64,000 nucleotides of DNA from Oscillospiraceae bacterium (GTDB lineage: Bacteria > Bacillota > Clostridia > Oscillospirales > Acutalibacteraceae). How positions within the stretch are numbered: the first letter of the stretch is position 1; each line of letters opens with the position of its first letter. The stretch is from the NCBI GenBank assembly GCA_031290105.1, contig JAITOD010000074.1:2563-66562 (forward strand), read 5' to 3'. Below the pieces are notes generated by a model. It worked only from the letters and a program-made list of their open reading frames with translations. It was not told where the DNA came from and searched no databases. Both the position numbers and the translations under genes were made by a program. Below, piece by piece: positions 38,041 through 57,920 of the stretch.

Positions 38041-38544
38041 AAGCAAACTCCTTATGTCCGGCAAAAAAATTTAAGTAACGCGGAGAAAGACACAATCGCC
38101 TTTTGGGAGATTCTGTCTTTCCGAACAATGGATTTGTTTGAAAAAATCCATGCTCTATTGTAACACAGGGCACTTTTTTTTTCAAGCTTGCCGTTTTGTG
38201 CTCCCCAATTCGCGTTCGCGATCAAAGGACCGTTAATGGGTTTTTGGGAAGCCTTCACGCATAAAATGCCCCGCACCCAGCAGAAACGTTTTGCGCTTGC
38301 CGGCTTATATCCTTCACGTTCGACGGGAAACTTGGTTTCCGTTCCGCAATGGTAGTATGTGCAGAGGCAAGCGCGGAATTCATGTGCTGTAATTGAGAAA
38401 TAATAACAATTCGGCAGTATGCTTTTGTGCGAAAGGTAAATGTTTCGGCGCCCGGCGGAGGAATTTATTTGTTTTTTGGGCATAATAATCAATAAATCGC
38501 GGTTTTTTGAGGGCGATGCGGACAAGCCCTTCAACAATTTTGGG

Positions 38545-38584
38545 CATGTTGCACAAAATGAATACGTTGCTTTTGTGCAACATG
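38545..38584. repeat. 14-bp perfect inverted repeat CATGTTGCACAAAA-N12-TTTTGTGCAACATG
   Basis: Abuts the -35 box of the 38586 promoter. Confidence 0.85.
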
Positions 38585-38585
38585 C

Positions 38586-38614
38586 TTGACAAATTTGCGA
38601 AAAGCGGTTATAAT
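38586..38614 (+). promoter_or_regulatory. sigma-A promoter TTGACA-17-TATAAT
   Basis: Exact consensus, 32 nt upstream of the small ORF. Confidence 0.6.
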
Positions 38615-38646
38615 GGTATCATACCAAAGAAAAGGAGGTGGAATAA

Positions 38647-38784
38647 ATGAGAATGCGTGAACGGTTGAACTTGGAGAAGCAACTGCTCCAAAAGCTGGAG
38701 CGCGAACAGGGGCTGGTGTCCAAGTTCCTGACGGTGCTTGCCCTGATTTCTTTGGAACAGGGTGACCGCGCCCGAGCGGCATAA
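38647..38784 (+). CDS. 45-aa small protein MRMRERLNLEKQLLQKLEREQGLVSKFLTVLALISLEQGDRARAA
   Basis: AAAGGAGGTGG RBS 6 nt upstream. A bulged hairpin with a T-tract follows (~38814-38850). Confidence 0.4.
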   Translation: MRMRERLNLEKQLLQKLEREQGLVSKFLTVLALISLEQGDRARAA

Positions 38785-39072
38785 AATGCAGCCGATTTCA
38801 ACTAAACCAAGGTAACTCCTGCGGCAGTTCGCACTGCGGGGGTTATTTTGCTTTTATAGGGCTGATTTTTGTTTTAACCGATATTACCGTTTGCGTGTAC
38901 ACGTTCACCAACATCATTGCATTTATGACCCGTTAATAGGTTAGCTCGCACTTTGTTGCCCCGCTCGCAGCGTCCAAGGCGTGTGCGAAATATGCGAGGG
39001 TGAGCTCCAAAAACAAATTGCCGGTCAACTTATGTTTCGGCGGCGAGATTGATGGAAATTAAAATGGGGGGG

Positions 39073-39101
39073 TTGCGGAATTGGGAAAACTGTGCTATAC
39101 T
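39073..39101 (+). promoter_or_regulatory. promoter TTGCGG-17-(TGc)TATACT upstream of tRNA-Pro
   Basis: Extended -10-like TGCTATACT. Lies ~200 nt upstream of the tRNA. Confidence 0.4.
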
Positions 39102-39307
39102 AATGTAGGACGCAATGTATCTTTTGGGGCGTGTCATTATGGTCGGCGGCGTTGGCAAGAAAAATGTTCACCGCCTTGTAAGACTCGTCAGGTTGCTGCT
39201 CGGTAACTAAATCCTGTGTTGCCGCTCTAACCCGGCAGACCGATTCCGCAAGGTTTATGCTCGGCGACCGGACGTTGTTAGACTTTATTTCATGCAGAAA
39301 GCATTAT

Positions 39308-39383
39308 CCGGGTGTGGCGCAGTTGGTAGCGCGCTTGACTGGGGGTCAAGAGGCCGTGGGTTCAAGTCCCGCCACTCGGACCA
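39308..39383 (+). tRNA. tRNA-Pro (anticodon GGG), CCA encoded
   Basis: Cloverleaf CCGGGTG/TG/GCGC-AGTTGGTA-GCGC/G/CTTGA-CTGGGGG-TCAAG/AGGCC/GTGGG-TTCAAGT-CCCGC/CACTCGG-A-CCA. G37 is present. Confidence 0.9.
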
Positions 39384-39387
39384 CAAG

Positions 39388-39434
39388 AAGCCCCTATATC
39401 TCAACGATTTTGAGACGTAGGGCTTTTAATTTTA
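39388..39434 (+). terminator. hairpin plus T-tract after tRNA-Pro
   Basis: AAGCCCCTA...TAGGGCTT (one bulge) followed by TTTTAATTTT. Confidence 0.45.
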
Positions 39435-39478
39435 GCTCTCAGTGACTACAAAGTGACTAATAAACTTTCCAGCACTCC

Positions 39479-40012
39479 CTATCCCACCATCACTCCCTCT
39501 GCCACCCAAGCTCTCGAGAAATCCCGATCCCGAAACAGCGCCGCCAGCCCGCTGAGCTGCTTGAGCCGTAATAACTCGTCGGCGTCCATGCCGAAGTTGC
39601 GCATAATCCAGTCGTCGCCCATGCCTGCCTCAATAACATTCTGTACAATGCCCTGCATAAGCTCAATTGAGTGCATACCCCGCGCGCGGTTGTGCCTGAT
39701 TGTGCTGGCCATGCGGTCGCTGATGGGCTTGTCGATGACGGACACCGGCAAGCAAGCACCCTCGCGTTCGCGAATGCGTTTGCTCGTCAGCATTACCGTG
39801 TAGCGGTGGAATCCGTCCACAATTTCGTACTTGCCGCTCTCCTCAAGGTAGTAGCACACAATGGGCATGGTGTATCCGTCTTCCCAAATTGACTTCTCCA
39901 AAAGCTTCATTTCCGGTGGCGCAACGTGGTTTGGATTATAGGCGTTTGCTTGTATTTTTCCGATTGGCACACGCCGAATATCATAGACCGGACTTATAAA
40001 AGATCGCTCCAT
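39479..40012 (-). CDS. ParB-like nuclease domain protein (IbrB-like)
   Basis: ParB N-terminal motifs IVDGFHRY and RHNRARG. Overlaps the upstream gene by 19 nt. Confidence 0.75.
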   Translation of the reverse strand: MERSFISPVYDIRRVPIGKIQANAYNPNHVAPPEMKLLEKSIWEDGYTMPIVCYYLEESGKYEIVDGFHRYTVMLTSKRIREREGACLPVSVIDKPISDRMASTIRHNRARGMHSIELMQGIVQNVIEAGMGDDWIMRNFGMDADELLRLKQLSGLAALFRDRDFSRAWVAEGVMVG

Positions 40013-41280
40013 TTTTCAATAGCCGCCTTTCTTTTTTTGATTTCGGATTTTGTTTTCGCAAACCCCATGTACTTGCAAGTGTGGTCGTTTTTGAGTATGC
40101 ATACGCACATGCGCTTGTAGCTTGGCACTGATTTGAAGTCACTTATCTGCGGCATGTCGTCCGGATAATCGGCGAATCGCACAACGGCTTGACCATCATG
40201 CGCGCGTGCAACGGCGGTTTGGGCTTCACGTAGCTCACGCAAGGTTCGTTCGGACAAAACTCCGCCCTTTTCCCGCCAGAATTTTATAGAAACAGCGAGC
40301 TTGCGCAAATAATTTTGCCGTGCTTCATCCGGCAATGTTGATAGCAAAAACTCCATATATTCACGCCATGTGAAATGCGCAGGTTTTTGGATATTTCGCC
40401 AGCCCATTGCCGTGGTATTGCCGTAAATACCCGTAAAATTTACTCCATTGACGCGTGAAATCATGCGGCCCCAATTGTCGGGGTCAATTGCTTTGTAGTA
40501 TGCAAGGCTGCCTTTTGCGTAGTCTAAAAAAGGGCTTGCAACGCGCATTTGGCTAATGGTCATCCCAGCTTGATACATCAGGTCGTATAAAGAGTTATAG
40601 GTAAAACCAAATCGCGCATTCGCCGTCCAGATATCTTCTGTTCGCCAGTCGTAAATCGGGTGTCCAAGCGTGTATGCCGGCCGGTCAGTCAGCCAGCATA
40701 GCCCCCTGTGTTGGTTGACTTTTTTCGCGGAGGTGATAGCCGACAGCCGATTCAAGCTTTCGTCCGAGCGCACGCCGGTAAGACAGCATAATTTATTGCT
40801 ATGTTTTCCGGATAGCCATGCGCAAAAATTCTCCTGCACGTCATAATCCCATAAATCGCGGAAACTGAATTCGGCGGTATTTTCTGTAATGATATATTGA
40901 AAATCCGGCATTGAACGCACCCATAATTCTTGTTTTTCTCGCTCCCACGGAATCCAGTGGTCTTGAAACATTGACGTCGCACATGTCACTTTAATAGGCA
41001 AACAAAGCCAGTATTTGCCTACTTCATCGGGTAACGCCGCAAAGGCCTGCGTTACATAGTCCGTGGTCATTTGATACTGCGCCTCGTAGTCAATATGGTA
41101 TACAGACAGCTTATTTAAGCAACTATTTTCACTCGCATATTTCAAACAAAGATTCAGCAGCACGCCCGAATCTTTCCCGCCTGAAAATGCTACGAGCACG
41201 TTTTCAAACTCCGCGAATGCGTAAGCAATCCGTTCCATCGCCGCTTCATAAACATTTTCTGTTATAAAGATTTTACCCAT
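39994..41280 (-). CDS. PP-loop / phosphoadenosine-phosphosulfate reductase family protein with extended C-terminal domain (IbrA-like)
   Basis: PP-loop VLVAFSGGKDSGVLL. ~430 aa, consistent with a PAPS_reduct plus DUF3440-type architecture. Confidence 0.75.
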   Translation of the reverse strand: MGKIFITENVYEAAMERIAYAFAEFENVLVAFSGGKDSGVLLNLCLKYASENSCLNKLSVYHIDYEAQYQMTTDYVTQAFAALPDEVGKYWLCLPIKVTCATSMFQDHWIPWEREKQELWVRSMPDFQYIITENTAEFSFRDLWDYDVQENFCAWLSGKHSNKLCCLTGVRSDESLNRLSAITSAKKVNQHRGLCWLTDRPAYTLGHPIYDWRTEDIWTANARFGFTYNSLYDLMYQAGMTISQMRVASPFLDYAKGSLAYYKAIDPDNWGRMISRVNGVNFTGIYGNTTAMGWRNIQKPAHFTWREYMEFLLSTLPDEARQNYLRKLAVSIKFWREKGGVLSERTLRELREAQTAVARAHDGQAVVRFADYPDDMPQISDFKSVPSYKRMCVCILKNDHTCKYMGFAKTKSEIKKRKAAIEKWSDLL

Positions 41281-42902
41281 TTTATGCTTGCCTCCTTGCC
41301 CCTCAAATTTCGATTAATCTCCGCCAGCAGTCCGCCTTTTTTCTCAATATTCCGCACGAAGATTTCCTCCATGCCGCACTTGCAAAGAATGTCGGTGAAG
41401 TGCAGCTCGTCCGCAGCTTGCCCTGTGCGAAAAATTCGGTGTTCCGCGTGGATTTTTTGCGCGTAGTCAAAGGTCTGGTCGGCAAAAATTACGTGTGAGC
41501 AAAACTGCAGATTCAGCCCTTTCGCGCCCGTACCGTAAGTCAGCCAAAGCGCTTTTTCGTCATTTTCGCGAAAGTCTGCCAGCGTTTCATCGCGCTGTTT
41601 TCGGGTCTCGCTACCGGTGATTCGCGCCGCGCCCTCGGGTATTCCGTCCAAGTATTTCACAAAAACCAGCGCCTTGCCGGGTCGGCTCTCCAGTGCGGCG
41701 TTGACCGCCTCCGGCCGCCCGGCGCTCTTGGTGTAGCAGACCTGCAAGCGCGTGCACAGCTCCCAAAAGTCGATGTCGCTGTATTCCATCCGCGCAAGAA
41801 TTTCTTCCTTTATTTTCCTATACTCACTATCAAAATCGTTGTCGTATCGCAGTATTTCGTAGCTTTTTCGCACGTCCAGCACAAGGTCGCACTCGTAGCT
41901 GTAGGGCGCGATTAGACCCGTCAAGTGCTCAAGATTTTTGTAGCCCTTGATGTAGCGCCGCCCCTCTTCGCCGTCCCAGATGATGTAGTTGTGCGAAAAT
42001 TCGCGCCACTCCATGTCCAAAATTTGCGGCGAGAGAAACAAAATCTGGTTGTATAAATCCCGCGCGCCGCGGCTGATTGGCGTGCCGTTGAGTATGTACC
42101 GAAACGTGCTTTGCCGCCCGATTTCCTGCACTCGCGGCGTCCTCTTCTTGTTCCAATTTTTGATTGTCAGCGACTCGTCCACCACGCAGACTGCGCGCTT
42201 TCCCTCAAGCAAACGCAGGATTTTCAAGTACACGCGATCGCTCTGCGTCAGGCTCTCCACACCGTACGCGGCGACCTCCATATCGGGCCGCCACCGTTTC
42301 CGCTCCCTCTCAAAGTCGTCCAAAATTGCGCAGGGGCAGATGTACAGCACCAAATCCGCACCGCAATTTTCCAGCTTGTGGGCGCATAAATCCAGCGCGA
42401 CCTTCGTTTTGCCGCTCCCCATGCGCATGAAAAGTGCGCCGTAGTCAAGCGCCGCCAGCTTCGCGAAAGCAGCCCGCTGGTGAGCTTCCTGCGTCTGCGG
42501 GTCCTCCACTTCCGGCTCGTTGTAGACGTAGTTACCGTAGAGCGCCGCCCGCAGAATTTTCTGCGCCTTCAGCCAGCCCTTGGCCGTGCCCAGCGGCTCT
42601 TTTTTCTCGTCACCGACGGCGCGAAAAATCGCCAATTCTTTCATGTAATCGCACTCTAAAATCACCGCGTCCTTGGGTACAAGCGACGCTTTGAAAACCG
42701 GGATAGGCGTCCCAAGCGCGCAAAATCCGTTGAGCTTTCGCGGGTCAACGCCCGTCACGATTTTCGCCCAAGTGATATATCCGGTGCCGGACGGCTTGTA
42801 TATCACCGTGTCAAGCATGCTGTGGAGCCGCTCCACGCACTCGCGCGCCAGGTCGGACAGCTCCTGCACCGACAGCTCCGAAATGTCGAGACTTGCCACC
42901 AT
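41262..42902 (-). CDS. SNF2/DEAD-like superfamily 2 helicase
   Basis: Walker A MGSGKTK, motif II VVDESL, motif III LNGTP and a C-terminal helicase lobe (LTYGTGAKGLNLQ, RIFRTGQ). Confidence 0.8.
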   Translation of the reverse strand: MVASLDISELSVQELSDLARECVERLHSMLDTVIYKPSGTGYITWAKIVTGVDPRKLNGFCALGTPIPVFKASLVPKDAVILECDYMKELAIFRAVGDEKKEPLGTAKGWLKAQKILRAALYGNYVYNEPEVEDPQTQEAHQRAAFAKLAALDYGALFMRMGSGKTKVALDLCAHKLENCGADLVLYICPCAILDDFERERKRWRPDMEVAAYGVESLTQSDRVYLKILRLLEGKRAVCVVDESLTIKNWNKKRTPRVQEIGRQSTFRYILNGTPISRGARDLYNQILFLSPQILDMEWREFSHNYIIWDGEEGRRYIKGYKNLEHLTGLIAPYSYECDLVLDVRKSYEILRYDNDFDSEYRKIKEEILARMEYSDIDFWELCTRLQVCYTKSAGRPEAVNAALESRPGKALVFVKYLDGIPEGAARITGSETRKQRDETLADFRENDEKALWLTYGTGAKGLNLQFCSHVIFADQTFDYAQKIHAEHRIFRTGQAADELHFTDILCKCGMEEIFVRNIEKKGGLLAEINRNLRGKEASIKWVKSL

Positions 42903-42905
42903 TTT

Positions 42906-43736
42906 TCACCTCCCCAGCACAAAAATTTTTGAGATTCTGCTCTCTTTATATAGCAGCTTTTGCACGCGGTTGTACGTGTCCACGCCGACTATCGCCTCGT
43001 GCTCGCCGGGAAAAACCTGCCCGCTGTGGTAGCACCAGCCGGCGTACACAGCGTTGCGCAGGATTTTGTCAACCGCGCCGGGAATCATGTCGAACCCGCC
43101 GACCGTGCGGATGCCTTTATTTCGGCACCAGCTTGACAAGGCGACGCAGTCTTTCACGCGCAAATACTGCTCAAAAATCGTCCTGACCCGCTCCGCTTCC
43201 TCCGGCCGTATTACAAGGCTGCCGTCCCGGTGCCTGTATCCGAGTATATGCGAACATATGTGCTTGCCTTGAGCAACCCTCTCCAGCGACGCGAGCTTCA
43301 CATTTTCGGCGATGACCTCGCGCTCCCACTGAGCAATCACACCGAGGATGTAGAGCACCATGCGCCCCATCGGCGTGCCGAAGTCGAAGCTCTCCGAAAC
43401 GCTCTGGAGGGACACTTTGTAGGTGAGAAGCGTTTCGCAAATCGCGCACAAATCGCGTACGCTGCGAGTCAGGCGCGTCAGCTTCCAGATTAAAATCTTG
43501 TCGAATTTTTTCAATTTTGCGTCCGTGATTAGCCTCAGCATGGCGGGTCGGTGCGCCAAATCCTTCGCTGAAATCCCCTCGTCGCGGTATATTTCGACGA
43601 CTTCCCAGCCCTGCGCTGTGCAGAAGTCGAGCAGAGTTTTTTCTTGCGCGGCGAGTGAGTACCCCGAAAGCGCTTGCTCCGAGGTGCTCACTCGTATGTA
43701 AATTGCGATTCGCATGGCGGTCGTCACCGGGCGCAT
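42906..43736 (-). CDS. serine recombinase, short form (resolvase plus recombinase domains, no zinc-ribbon/coiled-coil region)
   Basis: Catalytic IYIRVSTSEQ. The recombinase domain ends ...NRVQKLLYKESRISKIFVLGR-stop. An alternative start is ATG 43715. Confidence 0.8.
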   Translation of the reverse strand: MRPVTTAMRIAIYIRVSTSEQALSGYSLAAQEKTLLDFCTAQGWEVVEIYRDEGISAKDLAHRPAMLRLITDAKLKKFDKILIWKLTRLTRSVRDLCAICETLLTYKVSLQSVSESFDFGTPMGRMVLYILGVIAQWEREVIAENVKLASLERVAQGKHICSHILGYRHRDGSLVIRPEEAERVRTIFEQYLRVKDCVALSSWCRNKGIRTVGGFDMIPGAVDKILRNAVYAGWCYHSGQVFPGEHEAIVGVDTYNRVQKLLYKESRISKIFVLGR

Positions 43737-44194
43737 CCCTCCAAAACCTCAGCACCCCAAATGTATGATGAGTAGTAGCAAAGCGCGTCATAGTCTTTCC
43801 CGTCGAGCAGTCTTAAGCCGCTCATCAGACTCTCGGCGGCACTGAGGATTCCGCGGGACCTTGCACGCCTGTCACTGTCGCTAATCTCGCGCTCGTGGTG
43901 TGCGTCGAAAGCCAAGCCGCGCATAGCTGAAAAAATTTCGTACAGCACTGACGGTACTTTCGCGTCTGATATTGCTTGCTCAGCAAAGGCGTGCGCTTCT
44001 TCTTCGGTGATTTTTTCGACTCCTTCCAGCCCGCCCTCATAGTCGGGAATCTGCTTTTTTGTGAAGCGGTCCGCAAGCACGGCTCTCGCTTTAAGCGCGT
44101 CTTGCGTCATGTATCCTTTGGAATAGTCGTATACTCTGCCGTCGGCGGTAGTTGCGATTTTGTGCTCGACCAGCTCAATAGAAAACTTTTTCAT
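43724..44194 (-). CDS. hypothetical protein (first gene of the recombinase operon)
   Basis: 156 aa. Its RBS and first codons lie inside IR-L. No motif recognised. Confidence 0.55.
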   Translation of the reverse strand: MKKFSIELVEHKIATTADGRVYDYSKGYMTQDALKARAVLADRFTKKQIPDYEGGLEGVEKITEEEAHAFAEQAISDAKVPSVLYEIFSAMRGLAFDAHHEREISDSDRRARSRGILSAAESLMSGLRLLDGKDYDALCYYSSYIWGAEVLEGCAR

Positions 44195-44327
44195 GATGAA
44201 ACCTCTTTCTTATGTGCGGGGCGTTGTGCCCCGGTTGATGAGTACAGCATACACTATCTATAGGTCTTTGTCAAGCACTAGAGCCAGCAAGATTAAAGCT
44301 TTGTAGGAATGTACAAAAATAACACTG
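44187..44327. repeat. IR-L: 141-bp arm of a large inverted repeat
   Basis: Matches the reverse complement of 45005-45144 with 4 substitutions and a 1-nt indel. Confidence 0.92.
44246..44274 (-). promoter_or_regulatory. outward promoter in IR-L: TTGACA-17-TATGCT
   Basis: Drives the 43724-44194 gene and its operon. The spacer contains CACTATCTATAGG. Confidence 0.55.
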
Positions 44328-44348
44328 CTGATAGTGCTATTTTGTCCA

Positions 44349-44377
44349 TTGATTTTTTTATCATAAAGTGATATAAT
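44349..44377 (+). promoter_or_regulatory. inward promoter TTGATT-17-TATAAT for RHH-like gene 1
   Basis: Hexamers at 44349-44354 and 44372-44377. Confidence 0.55.
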
Positions 44378-44401
44378 GGAGCAGAAAAGGAGGTGGCGTC
44401 T

Positions 44402-44593
44402 GTGCCGGTATCTGAAGCCAAGTCAAAAAATAACGCCAAGTGGGACAAAGAAAATATGATAAAGTTGTCAACCGCCGCGCGAAAAGAGGACGCGGAAGCT
44501 TTTCGCGCATGGGCCAAAAGCCAAGGCTTGAGCGTACACGCTGCACTTCTGGCATATGTCTTTGAGAAGATAGGAAAAAGCCGCCGGCAATAA
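44402..44593 (+). CDS. 63-aa ribbon-helix-helix-like DNA-binding protein, paralog 1
   Basis: GTG start 6 nt after AAGGAGGTG. Predicted strand-helix-helix pattern. ~55% identical to the 44733-44924 product. Confidence 0.6.
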   Translation: MPVSEAKSKNNAKWDKENMIKLSTAARKEDAEAFRAWAKSQGLSVHAALLAYVFEKIGKSRRQ

Positions 44594-44610
44594 AAAAACT
44601 GCCGTCCACT

Positions 44611-44646
44611 AAAAAGAGCACTAAGTCATAGCTTGGTGCTCTTTTT
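44611..44646. terminator. bidirectional terminator at the palindrome centre
   Basis: AAAAAGAGCAC-N14-GTGCTCTTTTT. Confidence 0.7.
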
Positions 44647-44732
44647 AAATTGGGATTACCCCCGCGCGTTTGGGGGCTTCGGTCGTATTTAAGGGTCACC
44701 CACGCAAGTGCGTGGTATTGGTTGGGATTGCG

Positions 44733-44924
44733 CTACTCGGCGGGAGTCTCCCCGATTTTTTCAAGGACGTACGCTAAAAAAACGGCGTGCACACTCATTC
44801 CGCGGCTCGCAGCCCATGCGCGAAAAGCTTCCGCGTAGTCTTTTCGTATGGAGCAAGATAGTGTGCTCATATTTTCTTTGTTCCATTTCGCGTCTGTCAA
44901 CTTTTTGGACGGCGTTTTCGGCAC
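44733..44924 (-). CDS. 63-aa ribbon-helix-helix-like DNA-binding protein, paralog 2
   Basis: GTG start after GGGGGTGAG. Shares AKW.KENM..LS..RK..AEAFRAWA...G.SVHA..LAYV.EKIG with paralog 1. Confidence 0.6.
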   Translation of the reverse strand: MPKTPSKKLTDAKWNKENMSTLSCSIRKDYAEAFRAWAASRGMSVHAVFLAYVLEKIGETPAE

Positions 44925-44950
44925 AAACTCACCCCCATAAATTCGACTTC

Positions 44951-44979
44951 ATTATACCATATCACGACATAAAAATCAA
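44951..44979 (-). promoter_or_regulatory. inward promoter TTGATT-17-TATAAT for RHH-like gene 2
   Basis: Mirror image of the 44349-44377 promoter. Confidence 0.55.
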
Positions 44980-45004
44980 CTATCCACAAAAACAACACTA
45001 TAGA

Positions 45005-45144
45005 CAGTGTTATTTTTGTACATTCCTACAAGGCTTAATCTTGCTGGCTCTAGTGCTTGACAAAGCCGTATAGATAGTGTATACTGTACTCATCAACCGG
45101 GGCACAACGCCCCGCACATAAGAAAGAGGTTTCATCATGAAAAA
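45005..45144. repeat. IR-R: 140-bp arm of the large inverted repeat
   Basis: Reverse complement of IR-L (~96% identity). Confidence 0.92.
45057..45085 (+). promoter_or_regulatory. outward promoter in IR-R: TTGACA-17-TATACT
   Basis: Drives the 45137-45334 gene. Confidence 0.55.
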
Positions 45145-45334
45145 CATTGAAAAAAGTGAGTCTTTAACCCGCGCCGCCGAACTTCTCCGGCAAGCAAAAT
45201 TTGTCTGCTCGCGCGTGATGGGCAATGTGAGTTACGACGAAGGGAAAAGCCCCCGTGCGGATTTTTCCGGAATCTTCTTTGTGCCCGAAGAGAGCGAGAA
45301 GCCCGGGCACATCACCGCTTGCGGCAGAGCTTGA
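45137..45334 (+). CDS. 65-aa hypothetical protein
   Basis: Uses the RBS and ATGAAAAA duplicated in IR-R. Followed by the 45357-45398 terminator. Confidence 0.45.
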   Translation: MKNIEKSESLTRAAELLRQAKFVCSRVMGNVSYDEGKSPRADFSGIFFVPEESEKPGHITACGRA

Positions 45335-45356: not shown

Positions 45357-45398
45357 AAAAACGGGCAATAACGCCGGCGTTATTGCCCGTTTTATTTT
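45357..45398. terminator. bidirectional terminator (36-nt perfect palindrome)
   Basis: AAAACGGGCAATAACGCC/GGCGTTATTGCCCGTTTT, flanked by A/T runs. Confidence 0.8.
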
Positions 45399-45460: not shown

Positions 45461-45670
45461 CTACGTTACCGCGTTCAACTCTTTAATTTTCAGCCATTCA
45501 GCTTTTTTAATCCGCGTCAGCCGCATTGCGTCGTGCCGAAAAATCTGTGTGTCGCAGCGGTACTCGTAGGTCTTGCCCTCGTGCTTGATGTACTCCGCCG
45601 TGTCCTTGTGCCGCCGTGCCGGAAATCCGCTGTAAACCGCATTGCTAACGCACCCGCTTGGTCTTGCCAT
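45461..45670 (-). CDS. 69-aa hypothetical protein
   Basis: AAGGAGG RBS. Promoter at 45724-45753. Its leader shares the conserved CAACCGGGG(G)CACAACGCC block. Confidence 0.5.
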   Translation of the reverse strand: MARPSGCVSNAVYSGFPARRHKDTAEYIKHEGKTYEYRCDTQIFRHDAMRLTRIKKAEWLKIKELNAVT

Positions 45671-45753: not shown

Positions 45754-45861
45754 GCCCTATAGATGGTGTTTTAGAAAGTTTGTCGGAGTGTACAAAGCTT
45801 CACTATCTATAGGGCGTATTTTGTGTTGGTTATAGTCATAAAAAATTCGCATTCACAAACA

Positions 45862-46267: not shown

Positions 46268-47275
46268 CTATGATTGAAAAAGTGTTACAGCGGTCAATGC
46301 GAAAAATGGGGCGATAGACGTTATCGTCGTACCCACGGTTGGATTTTTCCAGATACCCGTTCCTGTTCTTTGCAGAATATTCCCCGCCCAATCCGACGCG
46401 GTAGGATTGGTTTTAGTAAGCATTTCTGTGTTGATAAAGTAAGTTCCCGCCGGTAATCCTGTGCCGCTCAATTGCGCCGCAGTAAATGACCCTTTAATCC
46501 AAACGTTAACAGTCAATCCCATTTGACAAATAGCATAGCTTTTATCCAAAATGGGCAGCGTTTTGCTCGTATTGCCCGCCCACAAATCTGTTGTAATTGG
46601 CATTAGCGGGATTATTTTAGTTGGGTTGGTGAGCGCGGCAATACTGCTCCACATGGTGTCCGGCTGTATCGCGTCTTGCAATGCCATGATTGATTGCGCG
46701 AATGGCACCAAGTCGGCTTGGGTTGCGGCGTTGTTCCATTTCGTGCGCTCAGTGGCGGTAATATGCATCACTGCATCTGTGAAGTGTCCATTGTGTGACG
46801 CCATGCTTATATCATGCGCTGTAATATCCGCTTGTGTCGCCACCTCAACATTGGCGTCAATGCTCAGTTCCACATCAGCTTCAGAAGATATTCGCAGGTG
46901 CAGCCAAAGAGCAACGTCATTTGTTGCACCCTGCGTGGCTATGGACTTTGTGATTGCCGGGACGCTTGCAATCGCCAACAGCGAACCGGTTTCATCAAAA
47001 AGCCCAGTCTCGCGCACGGTAAAGCCGCCCACATCAGCGGGTATCACAATGCGAACGTCCAGAATATCGCTGTCCGTGGAGTTTTGCTGTACTAGATTCA
47101 CCATTCCGCTCCAGGTCTGATTTACAAGCGCAGTCATGTCCGTATTGGGCGTGTAATCTGTTCCGCCGCCGTCCCCAACCGCGCACGTGGGGATTTGCAC
47201 CGGCACGCCCTGAGCAATGTTAGTGGCAATTTTCGCGCGCCCCGCGTCCGTGACTACGGCAATATAGTTTGGCAT
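46268..47275 (-). CDS. phage tail fibre protein (tail-collar N-terminal type)
   Basis: N-terminus MPNYIAVVTDAGRAKIA...VGDGGG...ETGLFDE resembles the conserved P2 gpH/XkdV-like fibre N-terminal domain. Confidence 0.7.
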   Translation of the reverse strand: MPNYIAVVTDAGRAKIATNIAQGVPVQIPTCAVGDGGGTDYTPNTDMTALVNQTWSGMVNLVQQNSTDSDILDVRIVIPADVGGFTVRETGLFDETGSLLAIASVPAITKSIATQGATNDVALWLHLRISSEADVELSIDANVEVATQADITAHDISMASHNGHFTDAVMHITATERTKWNNAATQADLVPFAQSIMALQDAIQPDTMWSSIAALTNPTKIIPLMPITTDLWAGNTSKTLPILDKSYAICQMGLTVNVWIKGSFTAAQLSGTGLPAGTYFINTEMLTKTNPTASDWAGNILQRTGTGIWKNPTVGTTITSIAPFFALTAVTLFQS

Positions 47276-47284
47276 TTTCTTCTC

Positions 47285-47854
47285 CTATTCTGATTCTGTA
47301 ATGTCTATTCGCTCGCCGGAGCTCGTCCAGCTTGCAACGGGAATTTCGAATGACGGTTCTGATTGAATCGTTATGTTGAGCTGCAGGTGCGCCGGTATTG
47401 CTGACGTGATTTTTTGCACTAGTATATCATCCAAGAAATTTTGTTTGCTGAAAAGATAAATAACTACCAGGAGTTGCAGCATGTCGGTGCCGTCAATTGC
47501 TTCGAGCGTAACCTCGCAGTTAGTTTTCGGCACATATTTTTGTACTATGTCCCGAATCCACGTCAAGTTTATTTTTTGCGTGCTTATTACTCTGTGGAGC
47601 GTTTCACGCCGTTCGTCAAGCTTTGCGCCAGAGTCTGGAAATAGACGCAAAAAAGCTTCCAGCCGCACCAACAAATTGCCGCTTATGCTCGATAGATATG
47701 CGTTGGCGTAAAGCTTCCCAATGTCAGACAGCAGCACGTCAATCAGCGCGCCCTGTGTGCGCCATATCGCTTCAGCTTCAAGCACACCGCGATAGTAGAA
47801 CGGCGAGTATGCCCGAAGCTCTTCATAGCCGCCATTAAATCCGGAGTTAAACAT
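47285..47854 (-). CDS. phage tail protein XkdU/YmfQ-like (DUF2313)
   Basis: Position after baseplate J, appropriate size, and a YY...LE.E N-terminal pattern. Confidence 0.55.
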   Translation of the reverse strand: MFNSGFNGGYEELRAYSPFYYRGVLEAEAIWRTQGALIDVLLSDIGKLYANAYLSSISGNLLVRLEAFLRLFPDSGAKLDERRETLHRVISTQKINLTWIRDIVQKYVPKTNCEVTLEAIDGTDMLQLLVVIYLFSKQNFLDDILVQKITSAIPAHLQLNITIQSEPSFEIPVASWTSSGERIDITESE

Positions 47855-48923
47855 TAAGGGTCACCTCCGAAAGAATCGGCACTTGGTTGATTGTCAGCGT
47901 GATGTTCGCATTGTCCCCGCCAACCAGCAAGCCGCTGTAGTCAATTATTTCCGGCAAGCTTGAAATCATAGCGCCAATTTGGCTGTACACAACAACTGCC
48001 GGATAGTTCGGACTGTAAAGCGATAGCGAGCGAAAATACTCAGTGATGCTTTTTGTGAACGCAACTTGCGCCGAATCTATCTCCGCTCCGGGCGCAAGCT
48101 TCACCGTCGCCGTTATGGATATTGGCATAGACTCTGCCGCCCACGCCGTGAACCTTGCGCCAATAGGAGCTTCGCCCATTCCAAGCCCATCACCCTCTCC
48201 GTCGGCGTCATTGTCCGGGTCAATGAACGACTGCACCGAAGCCACAGTCATTGCCGAAGGAGGTGTTCCTTGGGGCGTGATTATTACTGCGCCCACAGTA
48301 TTTGCCCCGTTCCATTTGGGCAAAATTCGCGCCGCCCCAACGCCTTCTATAGATAAGCACCAGTCAAGATATTGCGCCTTGTTCGCGCTTTTCACTCGCT
48401 GTATGAGTGTATCTTGAATGCGTGCGCGAAACGCTTCATCAGTTTCAACGTCTTGTCCCGCGACTTCAAGCGCGCCGAAAGTCGATGAAGTCAACCCCGT
48501 TATGCTCTCGTAAGGTAACGCGGGTGTCCCGGCGGCAATGTTGTTCGCGTAACTGCCCGCGATTTCCGCACGCAGGAATAGTGTTGTTTCCTGCAATTCC
48601 ACGCGAAAATAAAGGGATTCGCTAAGGAACCGCGCGCCAATCGGCGGCTGTGTCCCTGTGTAGTTCATTATATATTTTGCCGTCACTGCGCCTGTGCGGG
48701 TAAGCCCAAAGTCTTTAGCTTTCAAGTCCAGATTCTCGCCTGTCGCCGTGTCAAGTGAAATGTCGTCTGCAATCATTGACAGGTCTGTGTAAATCCGCGC
48801 CAGAAGCAAGCACATGGGCGCAACCGAATCAAAAAACACTTCGCCCTGTCGGGTGTTGATTCCCTCCGGCGCGGCGGCAATCGCCTGATTCAATAAATTC
48901 TCGTATGTTTTGTCCTCAAACAT
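47847..48923 (-). CDS. baseplate J-like protein (XkdT-like)
   Basis: 358 aa with N-terminus MFEDKTYENLL and a baseplate-J-like central region. Synteny supports the call. Confidence 0.7.
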   Translation of the reverse strand: MFEDKTYENLLNQAIAAAPEGINTRQGEVFFDSVAPMCLLLARIYTDLSMIADDISLDTATGENLDLKAKDFGLTRTGAVTAKYIMNYTGTQPPIGARFLSESLYFRVELQETTLFLRAEIAGSYANNIAAGTPALPYESITGLTSSTFGALEVAGQDVETDEAFRARIQDTLIQRVKSANKAQYLDWCLSIEGVGAARILPKWNGANTVGAVIITPQGTPPSAMTVASVQSFIDPDNDADGEGDGLGMGEAPIGARFTAWAAESMPISITATVKLAPGAEIDSAQVAFTKSITEYFRSLSLYSPNYPAVVVYSQIGAMISSLPEIIDYSGLLVGGDNANITLTINQVPILSEVTLNV

Positions 48924-49326
48924 AGGTTTTTACTCCTTCCGTGATTTCGCCTTCTGTTGTGTTTACCGTGCATAAGATTATCAAGCTTTCATCTTGAAAT
49001 TCCAGCGTGATATTCTGAACCTCGAGAATCCGTTCGTCATCCAATAGCGAATCCTCCAGCAATCCCGGCAGTGCGCTGGTGATTAGCTCTCGCGTGGCGT
49101 CGTCTCCATGGGTCAGCGCACGCAGTTCAAGCCCGTATTCATCATCGTAAATCGGGACGGCGTAGCGCTCTGTCAGTATGATTTTTGTTATCGCCTGCCG
49201 GACCCCGTCCATGCCGTCCACAGTGCCGATAATGCGTCCCGCTTGCAAATCTAGCTTGTAGGTTTTGTTCTGAACGCTGATACTTTCTTCTATTCCCTCA
49301 ATAGGTATTGGTATAAATACAGCCAT
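48916..49326 (-). CDS. baseplate wedge protein XkdS-like (DUF2634)
   Basis: Start MAVFIPIP after AAGGGGTGAG. Size and synteny fit. Confidence 0.55.
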   Translation of the reverse strand: MAVFIPIPIEGIEESISVQNKTYKLDLQAGRIIGTVDGMDGVRQAITKIILTERYAVPIYDDEYGLELRALTHGDDATRELITSALPGLLEDSLLDDERILEVQNITLEFQDESLIILCTVNTTEGEITEGVKTYV

Positions 49327-49330
49327 GTTC

Positions 49331-49585
49331 TCACCCCTTGTCCAGCAGATAAAACGAGTTCTCGGCCAATGATAGAACATATACCGTGTCACCCGGTTTG
49401 GGAGCATTTTCGCCGGAGAGCCGGGCAGGAATAATAAGATCTCCTTCATCAAGCCAAAACTTTTCATCATGAATTCCCTGCAGTTCCAGTGGCTCGACCG
49501 AAATAACCGCGCATGAAATGATCCCGCCGCCGCCGGCGCTGATTGCTCCACGAATGAGCTGCAAAATGCCGTTGTCCCCGCCCAT
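49331..49585 (-). CDS. XkdR-like small baseplate protein (DUF2577)
   Basis: 84 aa. Synteny supports the call. Confidence 0.5.
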   Translation of the reverse strand: MGGDNGILQLIRGAISAGGGGIISCAVISVEPLELQGIHDEKFWLDEGDLIIPARLSGENAPKPGDTVYVLSLAENSFYLLDKG

Positions 49586-50562
49586 CAGATCTCGTCCTCC
49601 GTCCTTGTCAGCTTTAAGCGCATTCGGTGCGTCCCGTCAAAGGTGTGCGCGTCTTCGTCCACATAGTAAGTGCGCCCCGCTATATTTGGCAAAATCGCGT
49701 GTACGCATCGCCCCGATATGATATCAGCAATGCCAATAGCTTCAACCGATAGTGTAATCACCGGCTTCGCCAGCTCAGCGATTTTTTGCTTCCCCAACGC
49801 AAGGTACTGCGCCCTTGGAGTTCCCTTGCTAACGCTCTCAATTTCTTGCATAATGCCAATTCGGCTTTCAAGTTCCGGGCGTTTTTCCAGCAAAATAGTT
49901 GTGTCAATGTCTGATGTATTCCATACCATTTTCAGCCGTGTGCGCGTTTTTTCAATGCTGGTGCTAAGGTTGTATGAGATTAAATTCACGCCCGGTTCAA
50001 GAACCCACGGTATCGTCGTTTCGCGCCGCAAAATCAGTTCCAGGCGGTCTTTTTCACTGTATATCCAGTATCTCCGTCCGGTCGCGGTGAAGGTTGCGCT
50101 CATCGCTTCCTGCAAAACGTCCCAAGCCGTCGCTGCGGATTTTTTAAGGCTCGGTATTTTGTATCCGCTTTCTGCCGCCGAGTAGGGAATTTCAAAGCGC
50201 GTGCAAATGTCGCGGAAAATCTGCGTCAGCGTCTTGGATTTATAGCAAAATGTGTCGCGGTTATTTGAAAGATAAACCCCGTTGTCAAAAGCCTTTATGC
50301 TCATAGTTTCCTTGTCGCTCGGCGCGTCAGAAAAGATTAGCCCCCTAAAAAGCTCCGCACCCTTGTAAAGGAAAATCAAATGGTTGCCTTGCACAGCGTC
50401 TATGCCGGAGCGCGGATATTTGCCGCTCTCAAGCAGAGTCGCCGTCATCGTCCGCGCGGAAGCGCCCTTGCGTCCGCTCCACTGAACGGAACCCACAAGC
50501 AGCTGCGATATATCGTAAGTCTGCCCGGAGCGGATTAAAAGCAAAGTGCAGTCGGTTAGCAT
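49585..50562 (-). CDS. XkdQ / late-control-D-like tail protein
   Basis: Start MLTDCTLLL after AAAGGAG. ~325 aa. Lies between the LysM protein and the baseplate genes. Confidence 0.6.
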   Translation of the reverse strand: MLTDCTLLLIRSGQTYDISQLLVGSVQWSGRKGASARTMTATLLESGKYPRSGIDAVQGNHLIFLYKGAELFRGLIFSDAPSDKETMSIKAFDNGVYLSNNRDTFCYKSKTLTQIFRDICTRFEIPYSAAESGYKIPSLKKSAATAWDVLQEAMSATFTATGRRYWIYSEKDRLELILRRETTIPWVLEPGVNLISYNLSTSIEKTRTRLKMVWNTSDIDTTILLEKRPELESRIGIMQEIESVSKGTPRAQYLALGKQKIAELAKPVITLSVEAIGIADIISGRCVHAILPNIAGRTYYVDEDAHTFDGTHRMRLKLTRTEDEI

Positions 50563-50600
50563 GGCAAATTCTCCTTTGTGATATATTTCCACTAAAAAGC

Positions 50601-50629
50601 TTGACACGTTAAAACATATCGGATATAAT
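50601..50629 (+). promoter_or_regulatory. sigma-A promoter TTGACA-17-TATAAT for the toxin-antitoxin pair
   Basis: Exact consensus, 43 nt upstream of 50672. Confidence 0.6.
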
Positions 50630-50671
50630 AATGACATCATATAGCATATCAAGCATGATTGTGGGGTTACG

Positions 50672-51031
50672 ATGCAAAACTACGACATCCAATTTTTTGA
50701 AACCTCCGAAGGCAAATGTCCCGTGCGTGATTTCATGGATTCGCTAGATATGAAAATGCTTGCAAAGCTCTATCGCACACTTGAAATGGTGGAAGAATTT
50801 GGCTCAGCGTTGCGCGAACCTTATTCTAAACACCTGGATGACGGCATTTTTGAGCTTCGTGCTAAGGTCGGCTCAGATATCACACGTGTGTTGTATTTTT
50901 TCTTCATCGGTCATAAGGTAATTTTGACCAATGGTTTTATTAAGAAAACACAGAAAACGCCGCAAGGTGAAATTAATAAAGCCAAGGAATACCGAAAAGA
51001 ATATTTGATACGAGAGGAGCAAAGCCAATGA
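50672..51031 (+). CDS. RelE/HigB-family toxin (phage Gp49-like)
   Basis: 119 aa. F.ETS.G..PV.DF...L........L..L.E.G..L..P..KHL.DGIFELR...G..I.RVLYFF matches the Gp49/HigB-like pattern. Confidence 0.75.
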   Translation: MQNYDIQFFETSEGKCPVRDFMDSLDMKMLAKLYRTLEMVEEFGSALREPYSKHLDDGIFELRAKVGSDITRVLYFFFIGHKVILTNGFIKKTQKTPQGEINKAKEYRKEYLIREEQSQ

Positions 51032-51306
51032 CTTCCTTCAAAGCCCTCAAGGCCGAGCTTATGCAAAACCCTGAATTCCGCACCGAGTATGAGGCCCTCG
51101 CGCCCGAATTCGAGATTGCCCGTGCCGTGATTTACGCGCGCGAAACGGCTGGGCTATCCCAACGCCAGCTGTCCGAAAAGACGGGCATAACCCAGTCTGA
51201 CATAAACAAGCTCGAAAACGGTAATGCAAACCCCACGCTCAAAACTCTTCAACGCCTGGCCGAGGGTATCGGGGCCAAGCTCACGATTGAATTTCAGCGC
51301 GCCTAG
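51028..51306 (+). CDS. XRE-family HTH antitoxin (HigA-like)
   Basis: HTH LSQRQLSEKTGITQSDINKLENG. 4-nt overlap with the toxin. Toxin-first gene order. Confidence 0.75.
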   Translation: MTSFKALKAELMQNPEFRTEYEALAPEFEIARAVIYARETAGLSQRQLSEKTGITQSDINKLENGNANPTLKTLQRLAEGIGAKLTIEFQRA

Positions 51307-51962
51307 CCTTTCGGAATCACAAAAACCTGCCCCGGATAAATCCAGTGCGGGTCTTTGATTTTTGCTTTGTTCGCGTTGTAAATCAACTTCCATTTAGCTC
51401 CATCTCCCAGGAGCTTTTTGGCAATGAGATATAGGCTGTCGCCCTTGATTACCGTGTAAGTTCCGGGTATTGTTCTGCTGCCGCTGCGTGATTTCGAGTT
51501 GCCCGGCAGCTGCGCTTTGCCGTTCTTAACCGTTATTTTTCGCACAGTGACTAAGGGCGACGCTTTCAGACTGAACGAGTAGCCAATGTCGCCCGCACCG
51601 AACGCCCCCTCGTCACACGCGAAAGTGTCAACGTATCCGGTCAGGTTTATCCAGCTGTTCGTTACTATTAAGTGGACTCGCGTGCCGTCGTCTTTCCATT
51701 TCTTTATCTTTGTAACAAGCTTTTTAGGTGACGGCCAGGTTCCCGTCCATGAGATGGTCGGCGGCTTGTGTGCCGGGAAAAAGCCGGAAAAGCTGACCGA
51801 TTGCGCAGGGCTTGGCTGAGGAATCGTTAGTTCGCCCAAGCCCAGCACGGTCAACGAGCTGTTTTTGCTTGCCCCCGAAACTTGAAATTTGCTTGACACA
51901 ATAGGCAGTCGCAGATTATCCTTTTCGCCGTTAGCCGTTAACCAAAGCTGATATTTTGCCAT
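51303..51962 (-). CDS. LysM-domain tail protein (XkdP-like)
   Basis: C-terminal LysM YTVIKGDSLYLIAKKLLGDGAKWKLIYNANK. Start trimmed to 51962 (TAAGGAGG RBS). Confidence 0.7.
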   Translation of the reverse strand: MAKYQLWLTANGEKDNLRLPIVSSKFQVSGASKNSSLTVLGLGELTIPQPSPAQSVSFSGFFPAHKPPTISWTGTWPSPKKLVTKIKKWKDDGTRVHLIVTNSWINLTGYVDTFACDEGAFGAGDIGYSFSLKASPLVTVRKITVKNGKAQLPGNSKSRSGSRTIPGTYTVIKGDSLYLIAKKLLGDGAKWKLIYNANKAKIKDPHWIYPGQVFVIPKG

Positions 51963-51973
51963 TTGCCGCCTCC

Positions 51974-55444: not shown

Positions 55445-55633
55445 AAAAATTGCTCCTCTCCCCAAATTTCAAGAACCGGATTTTTGCACCTGCCTAATCC
55501 GGCTCTTCTTCAAACAACTCCAGCTGAAGCTCCGCAATGTATAAGCTTTTTAGTCTTATGTCCATTTCGGAGAAATCCTCCATCCGAAGTCTGCGGTGAC
55601 GCCACAGTAAGCCCGCCCAGTAAAGCTCGCTGC

Positions 55634-56083
55634 CTACTGCGGCAAATCCTTTTTTGCCTTTTTTATGAGAGTTTCGGCGTCTGCGTTGTCGTTGATTACG
55701 GCGTAAACCATGCTGATTACGTGTTCAACCTCGCCCGGCTCATGAAAAACACGGTCAAGCATTTCCGTTATGTCTATGCAGTCAAGTTTTGCCATCAGCC
55801 CCGCGTCTTTTAGGTCCGGGTAAACTAACGCTTCCGCAACTATAAGCCGCACAGCTTTTTCGGTGTCATAAATCACTTCATGCACCACTTCACCGCCGTT
55901 GATGTAAGGATTTCCCTTGTCGTCAACCGCAATTTTAGTGTCCTTGCAGTCGCCGCGCAGCTTTTTAAGTACTTGCGGCGGCAGTGTGCGGATTTCCATC
56001 AGGTCATCGCCGAAACGCTTCGGTAAAGGAGCCTTGATGATTTTCTCCTCAAACGGGTGCATGAACGCAGTTAAGCTTTTCAT
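55634..56083 (-). CDS. tail assembly chaperone (XkdN-like)
   Basis: 149 aa between the tube and tape measure genes. A slippery site lies 5 codons before the stop. Confidence 0.65.
   Translation of the reverse strand: MKSLTAFMHPFEEKIIKAPLPKRFGDDLMEIRTLPPQVLKKLRGDCKDTKIAVDDKGNPYINGGEVVHEVIYDTEKAVRLIVAEALVYPDLKDAGLMAKLDCIDITEMLDRVFHEPGEVEHVISMVYAVINDNADAETLIKKAKKDLPQ
55649..55655 (-). other. candidate -1 programmed frameshift heptamer A_AAA_AAG
   Basis: Zero frame reads GCA AAA AAG. The -1 frame stays open for ~52 more codons to the TAG at 55494-55496. Confidence 0.6.
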
Positions 56084-56094
56084 GTTACTTCTCC

Positions 56095-57919: not shown

Positions 57920-57920
57920 A

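Follow-up and report, generated by a model that had tools for sequence, protein, structure and literature searches.

PP-loop enzymes with the fold of the IbrA proteins adenylate oxygen atoms, whether of sulfate (CysD), of the phosphate of FMN (FMN adenylyltransferase) or of DNA (Dnd, Ssp). Synthesis of phosphorothioate (PT) DNA requires a PAPS-reductase-domain protein and a P-loop NTPase, and in SspBCD and BREX type 4 a protein of the first kind and an NTPase form the minimal PT-writing pair (PMC12914056). The DNA-modifying enzyme DpdA requires a ParB-like partner, DpdB, and phage thymine dioxygenases acting on double-stranded DNA (dsDNA) likewise need a ParB-like partner (PMC13229309). Dnd is countered by two phage genes, one of which encodes a PAPS-domain::Dam fusion (bioRxiv 10.1101/2021.05.05.442762), and anti-defence operons regulated by Aca contain PAPS reductases that are possible DNA modifiers (PMC13551039). 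Here, a module made of IbrA, its ParB-fold neighbor IbrB and an SNF2 helicase is described from the end of a prophage in an Oscillospiraceae bacterium. The window is the whole 64,000-nucleotide stretch that was analyzed (GenBank assembly GCA_031290105.1, contig JAITOD010000074.1, positions 2,563 to 66,562 of the forward strand). The initial annotation of this DNA proposed a DNA-modifying, defence or counter-defence role, which was an inference from domain families and gene context. It also held that IbrA and IbrB lack resolved biochemistry, and the searchable literature indeed contains none for IbrA/IbrB or for their Escherichia coli counterparts YbdN/YbdM.

The SNF2-IbrA-IbrB trio is a strongly conserved neighborhood, a point that the initial annotation had proposed to check. 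A scan of one genome per species, seeded with the helicase alone, yielded 80 loci, and IbrA adjoins the helicase in 79 of them. IbrB is present in 75, and most of the loci that lack it lie at contig ends. The hosts belong to about seven phyla and include Bacillota, Bacteroidota, Verrucomicrobiota (Opitutales), Alphaproteobacteria, Nocardia, Arcobacteraceae, Gastranaerophilaceae and Tenericutes. A reverse test started from 80 viral loci in IMG/VR that were seeded with IbrA. IbrB is adjacent in 78 of these, while SNF2 occurs in only 23, and it is found in 22 of the best 27 loci, which are the closest relatives. This means that IbrA and IbrB form the universal core of the module, and that SNF2 is an accessory of one subclade. 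Contrary to the initial annotation, the five genes of the operon in the window are not one system: in none of the 80 genome loci does the trio have the recombinase or the first gene beside it, and the placement of the trio behind a recombinase gene is peculiar to this phage.

IbrA-like proteins are abundant, with more than 6,400 cluster representatives at E<=1e-20, and they occur in 223 sequenced phage genomes. The best helicase matches in sequenced phages are genes that lie beside IbrA and IbrB. Such matches come from Streptococcus thermophilus phage CHPC877, Lactobacillus helveticus phages AQ113 and CR28, S. equinus phages and Fusobacterium phage phiFN37, as well as Listeria phage fragments and 90 Flavobacterium phage records. 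Escherichia phage PhiR5_2 has the IbrA/IbrB pair without the helicase. The module sits between lysin and cro-like genes in CHPC877 and in AQ113/CR28, and between the terminase and portal genes in Flavobacterium phage FCV-1. Phage FCL-2, which is related to FCV-1 and has IbrA and IbrB, carries neither integrase nor repressor, and lysogeny has never been seen (FCL-2 phage paper). Because these phages of dairy bacteria and of a fish pathogen are lytic and carry the module without integrase or repressor, its function would seem to benefit the phage itself.

Viral IbrAB loci without SNF2 have other neighbors. A different SF2 (superfamily 2) helicase, of the ResIII type, is found in 12 of 55 such loci. 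An uncharacterised partner of about 143 aa occurs in 25 of the 55 (IMG/VR loci L123-L175), and in 8 of the 55 the last ~80 residues of DUF3440, with the motif ILKNDH...LGF, are encoded by a separate mini open reading frame (ORF).

A small fourth protein also belongs to the helicase-bearing version of the module; the initial annotation missed it, as it missed the core status of IbrA and IbrB. Neighbor clustering places a gene for a protein of 85-140 aa before the helicase, ending at or overlapping the helicase start, in at least 68 of 84 loci. The N-terminal half of the protein is loosely conserved, a C-terminal motif, H-x-P-x-K-I...L, is common to its members, and no Pfam family matches it. 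That “the two ORFs upstream” travel with IbrAB was pointed out earlier in the FCL-2 phage paper. The small gene is absent from the window and from L005, a locus of an Oscillospiraceae metagenome-assembled genome that is the closest trio relative (helicase 60% identical). The L005 locus ends (at 6455-6653) just after IbrB, against the 3′ end of a tRNA gene, and has no recombinase upstream of the helicase. In these two loci only, the helicase carries an N-terminal extension, which occupies the site where relatives encode the separate small protein and which has no Pfam match. Fusion of the small protein to the helicase was considered and rejected: local hidden Markov model (HMM) and hhalign comparisons found no similarity, and the analogy is one of position only. 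A single-sequence AlphaFold2 (AF2) model of the helicase gave no usable fold (predicted local distance difference test, pLDDT, 32). The window is an atypical member of the module, with an extended helicase, no small gene, and an operon that includes a short recombinase.

Several individual trio loci have features of their own. A Succinivibrio locus (L019, 7556-9311) encodes the small protein and the helicase without IbrA or IbrB. Opitutales genomes (e.g. L036, 7675-11028) hold the four-gene module between ClpC-like and PurL housekeeping genes. In Gemella and Streptococcus (L025, L027, L038, L046, L071), a cas9 fragment with residues ~980-1341 only, followed by cas1 and csn2, directly adjoins the trio-bearing end of the prophage. 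An intact 1341-aa cas9 lies 567 nt past IbrB in L023. The fragmented loci look like prophage insertions into cas9.

The three proteins of the trio carry the motifs that had been quoted for them, and profile searches found the domains of all operon proteins apart from the 156-aa product of the first gene. IbrA consists of an N-terminal PAPS-reductase fold followed by a helical DUF3440 domain, and both domains score above their Pfam cut-offs (PAPS_reduct PF01507, 3e-11; DUF3440 PF11922, 3e-80). It matches phrog_2302 (5e-107), and its identity with the PhiR5_2 homologue from Escherichia is about 33%. An identical protein is recorded from an Oscillospiraceae metagenome-assembled genome, on a 73.7-kb contig. 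Its AF2 model has a pLDDT of 86. Foldseek aligned residues ~1-240 with CysH, the PAPS domain of FAD synthase, CysD, APS reductase, LarE and TilS, and found no match for the helical DUF3440 half. A search of PDB sequences with the IbrA profile returned matches at the level of the PP-loop only and no close solved structure, and scores against cysH, DndC, BrxP and TilS are far below the family thresholds.

The PP-loop SGGKDS of IbrA starts at residue 33. An alignment of 29 sequences (A2) keeps SGGKDS, E66, C93, R171/E174/S175/R178 and N398/D399 invariant, and across 71 homologues SGGKDS, D64/E66, R171-x2-E-S-x2-R178, D211 and N398/D399 are retained. C93 is cysteine in 94% of the 71 homologues and is the sole near-invariant cysteine. 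A conserved Fe-S cysteine triad was considered and rejected, as the other cysteine patterns vary.

IbrB belongs to the ParB/Srx fold class. It matches phrog_2159 (2.9e-77), and its Pfam ParB_N score (1.3e-5, 25.6 bits) lies just under the cut-off of 26.3. Over 77 homologues, 52 residues are at least 90% conserved, and the motifs DGFHRY and RHNRARG are found at residues 66 and 106. Among solved sequences, IbrB comes closest to Noc/ParB, in the nucleotide-binding domain, and to SbnI, a ParB-fold serine kinase that has the xDGxHRY motif in common with it (IDGVHRY).

The helicase has the Pfam domains SNF2-rel_dom and Helicase_C, with GSGKTK at residue 162, VVDESL at 240 and LNGTP at 271. Its best solved relative is the Sulfolobus SNF2/Rad54 dsDNA translocase 1z63. 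A set of 85 homologues conserves motifs I, II, III and VI. The window helicase is 31-61% identical to 84 helicases that neighbor IbrA, 34-36% to those of the dairy phages. Like the minimal SNF2 ATPases (~400 aa) that define this version of the module, it is encoded directly upstream of IbrA, with a gene overlap of 19 nt. The NCBIfam model “pilus expression-regulating Snf2 family helicase” gives it 25.8 bits against a cut-off of 1100. Because the catalytic motifs of IbrA, IbrB and the helicase are all conserved across phyla, the three proteins are probably active enzymes.

We favor, with confidence that stops a little short of even, the reading that the module is an ATP-driven, post-replicative DNA-modification machine used by mobile elements, with parts like those of Dnd and Dpd made of non-orthologous proteins. 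The target nucleic acid would most likely be dsDNA. In such a machine, the SNF2 motor would translocate on dsDNA and expose the target. IbrB, with its NTP-binding ParB/Srx fold, would load or activate IbrA on dsDNA, as DpdB does for DpdA and phage ParB for thymine dioxygenases. The PP-loop of IbrA would split ATP into AMP and pyrophosphate and adenylate an oxygen of a base or of a backbone phosphate, and a nucleophile (sulfur, an amine or another group) would then displace AMP. Phages and other mobile elements would thereby mark their own DNA and escape or manipulate host immunity.

This proposal draws on several lines of evidence. The genes are tightly linked, with IbrA and IbrB in 79 and 75 of the 80 genome loci and IbrB in 78 of the 80 viral loci. 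IbrA combines the PAPS-reductase/CysD/FMN-adenylyltransferase fold with a perfect SGGKDS PP-loop, the closest solved relative of the helicase translocates on dsDNA, and the catalytic motifs of all three proteins persist across phyla. Moreover, PT writers need the same pairing of a PAPS-reductase-domain protein with a P-loop NTPase, and ParB-fold partners are required by DpdA and by the phage thymine dioxygenases. Lytic phages keep the module, in one case between terminase and portal genes, and IbrAB loci that lack SNF2 often have a ResIII-type SF2 helicase. The anti-Dnd gene pair with its PAPS-domain::Dam fusion and the PAPS reductases of Aca-regulated operons also speak for it.

Other observations weigh against the proposal. 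DNA modification has been measured in no carrier of the module. IbrA has no conserved three-cysteine Fe-S site, C93 alone being near-invariant, and genes that could make a donor, such as one for a cysteine desulfurase, do not accompany it; the chemical step, sulfur transfer above all, is therefore tentative. IbrA also lies far below the DndC, CysH and BrxP thresholds. One survey by liquid chromatography-mass spectrometry detected no PT dinucleotides in Bacteroides dorei CL03T12C01, whose “PAPS reductase next to an ATPase” may or may not be an IbrA (PMC12914056). Chromosomal copies stand by housekeeping genes in Opitutales, and E. coli K-12 has ybdNM, so the module is not solely a phage tool. 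Finally, the single phenotype that goes with the name IbrA/IbrB, as given in the title of a SEED subsystem, is that prophage genes are activated. A bolder version of the proposal is that the four-part module writes a chemically new DNA mark, with IbrA adenylating base or backbone on motor-opened dsDNA, and that phages, prophages and some chromosomes in at least seven phyla use it to evade or reprogram immunity and transcription. This version is conceivable and on balance doubtful. If true, the new mark would also explain the old “co-activator” phenotype.

That same phenotype is the basis of an alternative in which the module regulates transcription: IbrB would bind DNA and, with IbrA and an SNF2 remodeller, switch on silenced prophage or host genes. 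The SEED name “co-activators of prophage gene expression”, which is also used in phage annotations, argues for it, and ibrAB reportedly activate the prophage eib genes of E. coli ECOR-9. In addition, loss of the repressor YbdO/CitR in E. coli strongly raises ybdNM and shifts many other genes, and the helicase does match the pilus-regulation model, if weakly (25.8 bits vs 1100). A pure DNA-binding regulator, however, would not need the invariant PP-loop, DGxHR and RHNRARG motifs, and lytic phages keep the module although they have no lysogeny to regulate. Activation could also result from DNA modification, in which case it would be a downstream phenotype and perhaps no rival. We consider regulation unlikely, and we give a similarly low probability to prophage-borne anti-phage defence or superinfection exclusion, in which the module would mark self or attack incoming DNA with IbrB as nuclease and SNF2 as translocase. 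The position at a prophage end beside the attachment site or integrase (the window; L047, L053) is a typical place for defence genes, and copies are also found in the chromosomes of Opitutales and E. coli. Proteins of the ParB fold are able to act as nickases or NTPases (PMC5512222), and SNF2 proteins are components of DISARM, Zorya and Dpd, although the window helicase matches these weakly. Yet no PADLOC model was matched as a system, the neighborhoods conserve neither a dedicated nuclease nor a restriction partner, and strictly lytic phages carry the module, one of them inside its packaging module.

The location in FCV-1 between terminase and portal genes would suit an aid to phage DNA replication, repair or packaging that leaves no covalent mark, e.g. 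by nicking or remodelling concatemers or by processing ends. So would the location in mycobacteriophage Gaia among primase, exonuclease and helicase genes, and nickase activity of the ParB fold is documented (PMC5512222). Elsewhere, however, the module follows lysis genes or lies at prophage ends or in chromosomal islands, and it is dispensable, as most related phages do without it. To our knowledge, PP-loop adenylyltransferases have no role in replication, repair or packaging, and this function appears quite improbable. The weakest of the functional rivals makes IbrA an auxiliary metabolic gene whose product, a genuine PAPS reductase, would raise sulfur assimilation by the host. Such genes are read in terms of sulfur metabolism in bioRxiv 10.64898/2026.02.18.706556, and a preprint devoted to organosulfur metabolism associated with viruses mentions DUF3440. 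This rival agrees with the Pfam PAPS_reduct domain and the CysH-like fold, but not with the cysH score (16.2 bits vs a cut-off of 165). An SGGKDS PP-loop that is intact and of the ATP type is usual in CysD and DndC, not in CysH. IbrA, moreover, has an obligate ParB-fold partner and often a DNA helicase beside it, and no other sulfur-pathway genes are linked to it, all of which makes a metabolic role highly improbable.

The trio lies at one end of the prophage, in a compact operon whose features are collected in the table. Myovirus tail-fibre, baseplate, tape-measure, sheath and head genes at 46268-64000 agree with the prophage setting that had been proposed, and since they lie upstream, the five genes form the tRNA-proximal prophage end. 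The tRNA-Pro gene marks the left prophage edge and is likely the attachment site; the stretch reaches from this edge into the head genes. An Rfam scan of 38-46.3 kb found this tRNA only.

Table. Features of the prophage end; positions are counted from the first letter of the window.
Feature	Position	Strand	Basis
tRNA-Pro (GGG)	39308-39383	plus	ARAGORN; Rfam, 65 bits
Hairpin between tRNA-Pro and IbrB stop codon	39386-39427	unstranded	RNAfold, -18.9 kcal/mol
IbrB-like protein, 177 aa	39479-40012	minus	ORF list
IbrA-like PP-loop enzyme, 428 aa	39994-41280	minus	ORF list
SNF2 helicase, 546 aa	41262-42902	minus	ORF list
Minimal SNF2-type ATPase core (residues ~136-546)	41262-42497	minus	SNF2-rel_dom, Helicase_C
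Helicase N-terminal extension, ~135 aa	42498-42902	minus	common to window and L005 only
Serine recombinase, 276 aa	42906-43736	minus	ORF list
156-aa gene (first of operon)	43724-44194	minus	ORF list
Imperfect palindrome, 958 nt	44187-45144	unstranded	inverted-repeat search
Left-arm outward promoter TTGACA-17-TATGCT	44274-44246	minus	promoter scan
RHH-like paralogue 1	44393-44593	plus	inside palindrome
RHH-like paralogue 2	44733-44924	minus	inside palindrome, convergent with paralogue 1
Right-arm outward promoter TTGACA-17-TATACT	45057-45085	plus	promoter scan
Third promoter copy TTGACA-18-TATAAT	45753-45724	minus	promoter scan; repeats I6, I12, I24

The gene packing is as the initial annotation gave it. 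The five genes are co-oriented on the minus strand, with overlaps of 13 nt (43724-43736), 19 nt (41262-41280) and 19 nt (39994-40012) and a gap of 3 nt (42903-42905) between the helicase and recombinase genes. A Shine-Dalgarno-like sequence precedes each gene. Because the outward promoter announced for the left repeat arm exists, and a search for internal terminators in the operon found nothing convincing, co-transcription of all five genes is plausible. The hairpin beyond IbrB is followed by a T-run on the plus strand, where it is the terminator of the tRNA gene. It may also end the operon, a role that is uncertain because the minus strand has no T-run. GC content at third codon positions (GC3) is 0.50 in IbrA, compared with 0.67 in the overlapping IbrB, 0.69 in the SNF2 core and 0.72 in the recombinase. 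The lower value of IbrA suggests a recent replacement of this one gene inside a translationally coupled operon.

The recombinase is short, as had been noted, but it belongs to a family of its own of 252-313 aa and is no part of the trio system. It matches Resolvase (PF00239, 3e-37) and Recombinase (PF07508, 7e-12), with RVSTSEQ at residue 15, and covers positions 85-362 of the integrase profile phrog_95, which has 651 positions. With large serine recombinases and phage integrases it has in common the catalytic domain (RVST) and the “Recombinase” domain, its best matches being CcrC/CcrB and phrog_95. It ends after PF07508, and its family lacks their C-terminal zinc ribbon and coiled coil. Lengths of 252-313 aa hold for every one of the 120 best homologues, which consist of Resolvase and Recombinase only. 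Among the loci examined (L085-L092), the homologues lie at prophage ends after holin and endolysin genes and are preceded by a small regulator gene of opposite orientation, along with one or two small ORFs that are unrelated. Judged from these sequences, the short recombinases are a separate, real family at prophage ends, and serine recombinases of 252-313 aa that lack the zinc ribbon may form a functional class apart there, with integrase, invertase and resolvase as candidate activities. Two other interpretations were rejected. A truncated pseudogene is contradicted by a whole family of such length, and a role as trio partner or integrase by the lack of co-occurrence in the 80 loci and by the L005 trio, which stands at a tRNA without it.

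The 156-aa protein encoded by the first gene has no family in four HMM libraries. A word-indexed search of 5.8 billion proteins returned only the protein itself, and an exhaustive HMMER search of 1.8 billion representatives gave one marginal match (E 3e-5). Its gene has a strong ribosome binding site (RBS), which is located in the repeat arm.

The palindrome next to the operon is built of nested repeats which, from outside to inside, are 115 nt (96%), 48 nt (88%), 38 nt (74%) and 142 nt (72%) long. In both arm promoters, arm alignment places the motif CTATAGATAGTG between the -35 and -10 boxes. Both arms continue with a common leader that contains a GGGGCACAACGCCCC hairpin, followed by the RBS and ATG of the first outward gene. 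The interior encodes two ribbon-helix-helix (RHH)-like paralogues of ~65 aa each, which are 72% identical in DNA, have weak Pfam matches to the RHH-fold families ParD/DUF6290 (E 0.08) and are each served by an inward TTGATT-17-TATAAT promoter. The third promoter copy is flanked by CTATAGATAGTG or close variants (the set of sites also includes 45803-45818), is followed by a similar GGGGCACAACGCCCC leader hairpin, and is predicted to drive a 69-aa ORF at 45461-45670 (-). This layout looks like a repressor-controlled hub that would serve a small regulon of cargo transcription units, and the operon promoter is probably repressed by the two neighboring RHH-like proteins. A 65-aa ORF at 45137-45334 (+), with the same type of promoter, converges with the 69-aa ORF. 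A perfect 18-nt hairpin terminator lies between the two at 45358-45393, and neither has a family match.

The inverted repeats also raise the question of whether all five genes and the palindrome are one recombinase-driven cassette, be it a switch that inverts, as Gin does with the G segment, or a mobile carrier of the trio. The serine recombinase adjoins inverted repeats of 115-160 nt downstream of a tail-fibre gene, and a short-read assembly (L176) breaks exactly at a repeat arm. However, assembly breaks are expected at any repeat, and the recombinase never accompanies the trio in the other loci (80 examined). Inversion would change little, given the symmetric interior and the position of the two outward promoters within the arms. 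Furthermore, a related prophage (L089) has a like promoter and operator layout without long arms: identical operator-bearing promoters flank an RHH (RepB-RCR_reg) gene there. A cassette of this kind is very unlikely; inversion at the repeats as such is conceivable.

Two further features of the window lie outside the operon. Between a host lipoprotein-like gene and tRNA-Pro there is a 1.2-kb region of low GC (0.46; 38065-39307) without a credible ORF; it contains a perfect TTGACA-17-TATAAT promoter at 38586-38614 (+), and Rfam is blank there. On the structural side, a Mu F-like head-morphogenesis protein (62537-63976, -) has a C-terminal ADP-ribosyltransferase toxin domain, as does a protein of L093 (1460-3184), and may be a virion-delivered effector.

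The lock between IbrA and a ParB-fold protein, the further lock with SNF2 and a small adaptor in one large subclade, and the Dnd-like set of parts amount to a testable hypothesis of a new DNA-modification pathway. Lytic carriers that can be cultivated for such tests include S. thermophilus, L. helveticus and F. columnare phages. The question is relevant to phage therapy, to the design of dairy starters and to the catalogue of defence and counter-defence chemistry. It also bears on the reading of gut viromes, where IbrA-like genes are counted as metabolic; such proteins are routinely labelled sulfur-metabolism genes or “co-activators”.

Compared with known systems, the trio maps to none that is named, in agreement with the initial annotation: PADLOC-DB 2.0 and NCBIfam do not match it as a system, and matches are at motif level only, to DndC/BrxP and DrmD/ZorD/DpdE. 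No description of the SNF2 and small-protein version of IbrAB as a system was found; the IbrA/IbrB pair is named and uncharacterised. A comparative-genomics study of 2013 is reported to have predicted DNA modification based on PP-loop enzymes in phages. The E. coli prophage and island IbrA/IbrB and the chromosomal YbdN/YbdM of K-12 have the same core of PAPS_reduct plus DUF3440 and a ParB fold, encoded by overlapping genes. Unlike the module, E. coli IbrA/IbrB come without SNF2 helicase and small upstream protein, and the phenotypes reported for IbrAB/YbdNM are gene activation or CitR repression only. The CysH fold is common to IbrA, but its C-terminal half is DUF3440 and the CysH model TIGR00434 gives it 16.2 bits against a cut-off of 165. 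Against the SNF2 components of DISARM, Zorya and Dpd, the helicase reaches 13-27 bits in PADLOC, and partner genes are absent; in NCBIfam it scores 24.9 bits against DrmD (cut-off 950) and 20.5 against ZorD (cut-off 1500). The match to BrxP of BREX type 4 is confined to the PP-loop (20 bits, residues 23-47), and no BREX type 4 or Ssp partner (BrxC/SspC, PglZ, BrxL, DUF4007/SspB, SspA) is found among the ORFs at 36-48 kb.

Closer parallels lie in the arrangement of parts. The Dpd 7-deazaguanine system likewise has a DNA-modifying enzyme that depends on a ParB-like ATPase, and SNF2-type helicases such as DpdE belong to its cluster, although its writer DpdA is a transglycosylase, IbrA is a PP-loop enzyme, and neither DpdA nor DpdC occurs here. 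In phages with 5mYOX thymine dioxygenases, a ParB-like protein is the obligate activator of a post-replicative dsDNA modifier (PMC13229309); the Fe/2OG dioxygenase class and the ParB architecture differ from those of the module. The PAPS-domain::Dam protein of Vibrio podophages is also a phage-borne PAPS-reductase fold, experimentally tied to counter-defence (bioRxiv 10.1101/2021.05.05.442762), but it is a methyltransferase fusion without DUF3440, ParB partner or helicase. With Dnd, none of the module proteins is orthologous. IbrA scores 15.3 bits against the DndC model TIGR03183 (cut-off 290) and 21 bits over 57 residues against that of PADLOC, and it lacks conserved Fe-S cysteines. PADLOC and NCBIfam models find no DndA, DndB, DndD or DndE among the five proteins, there is no DndA or DndFGH restriction partner here, and the ATPase of the module is of the SNF2 type whereas DndD is SMC-like. 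In composition the two are nevertheless parallel: the small protein corresponds to DndE, the P-loop ATPase to DndD, the PAPS-reductase-fold enzyme to DndC, and the DGxHR ParB-fold protein to DndB.

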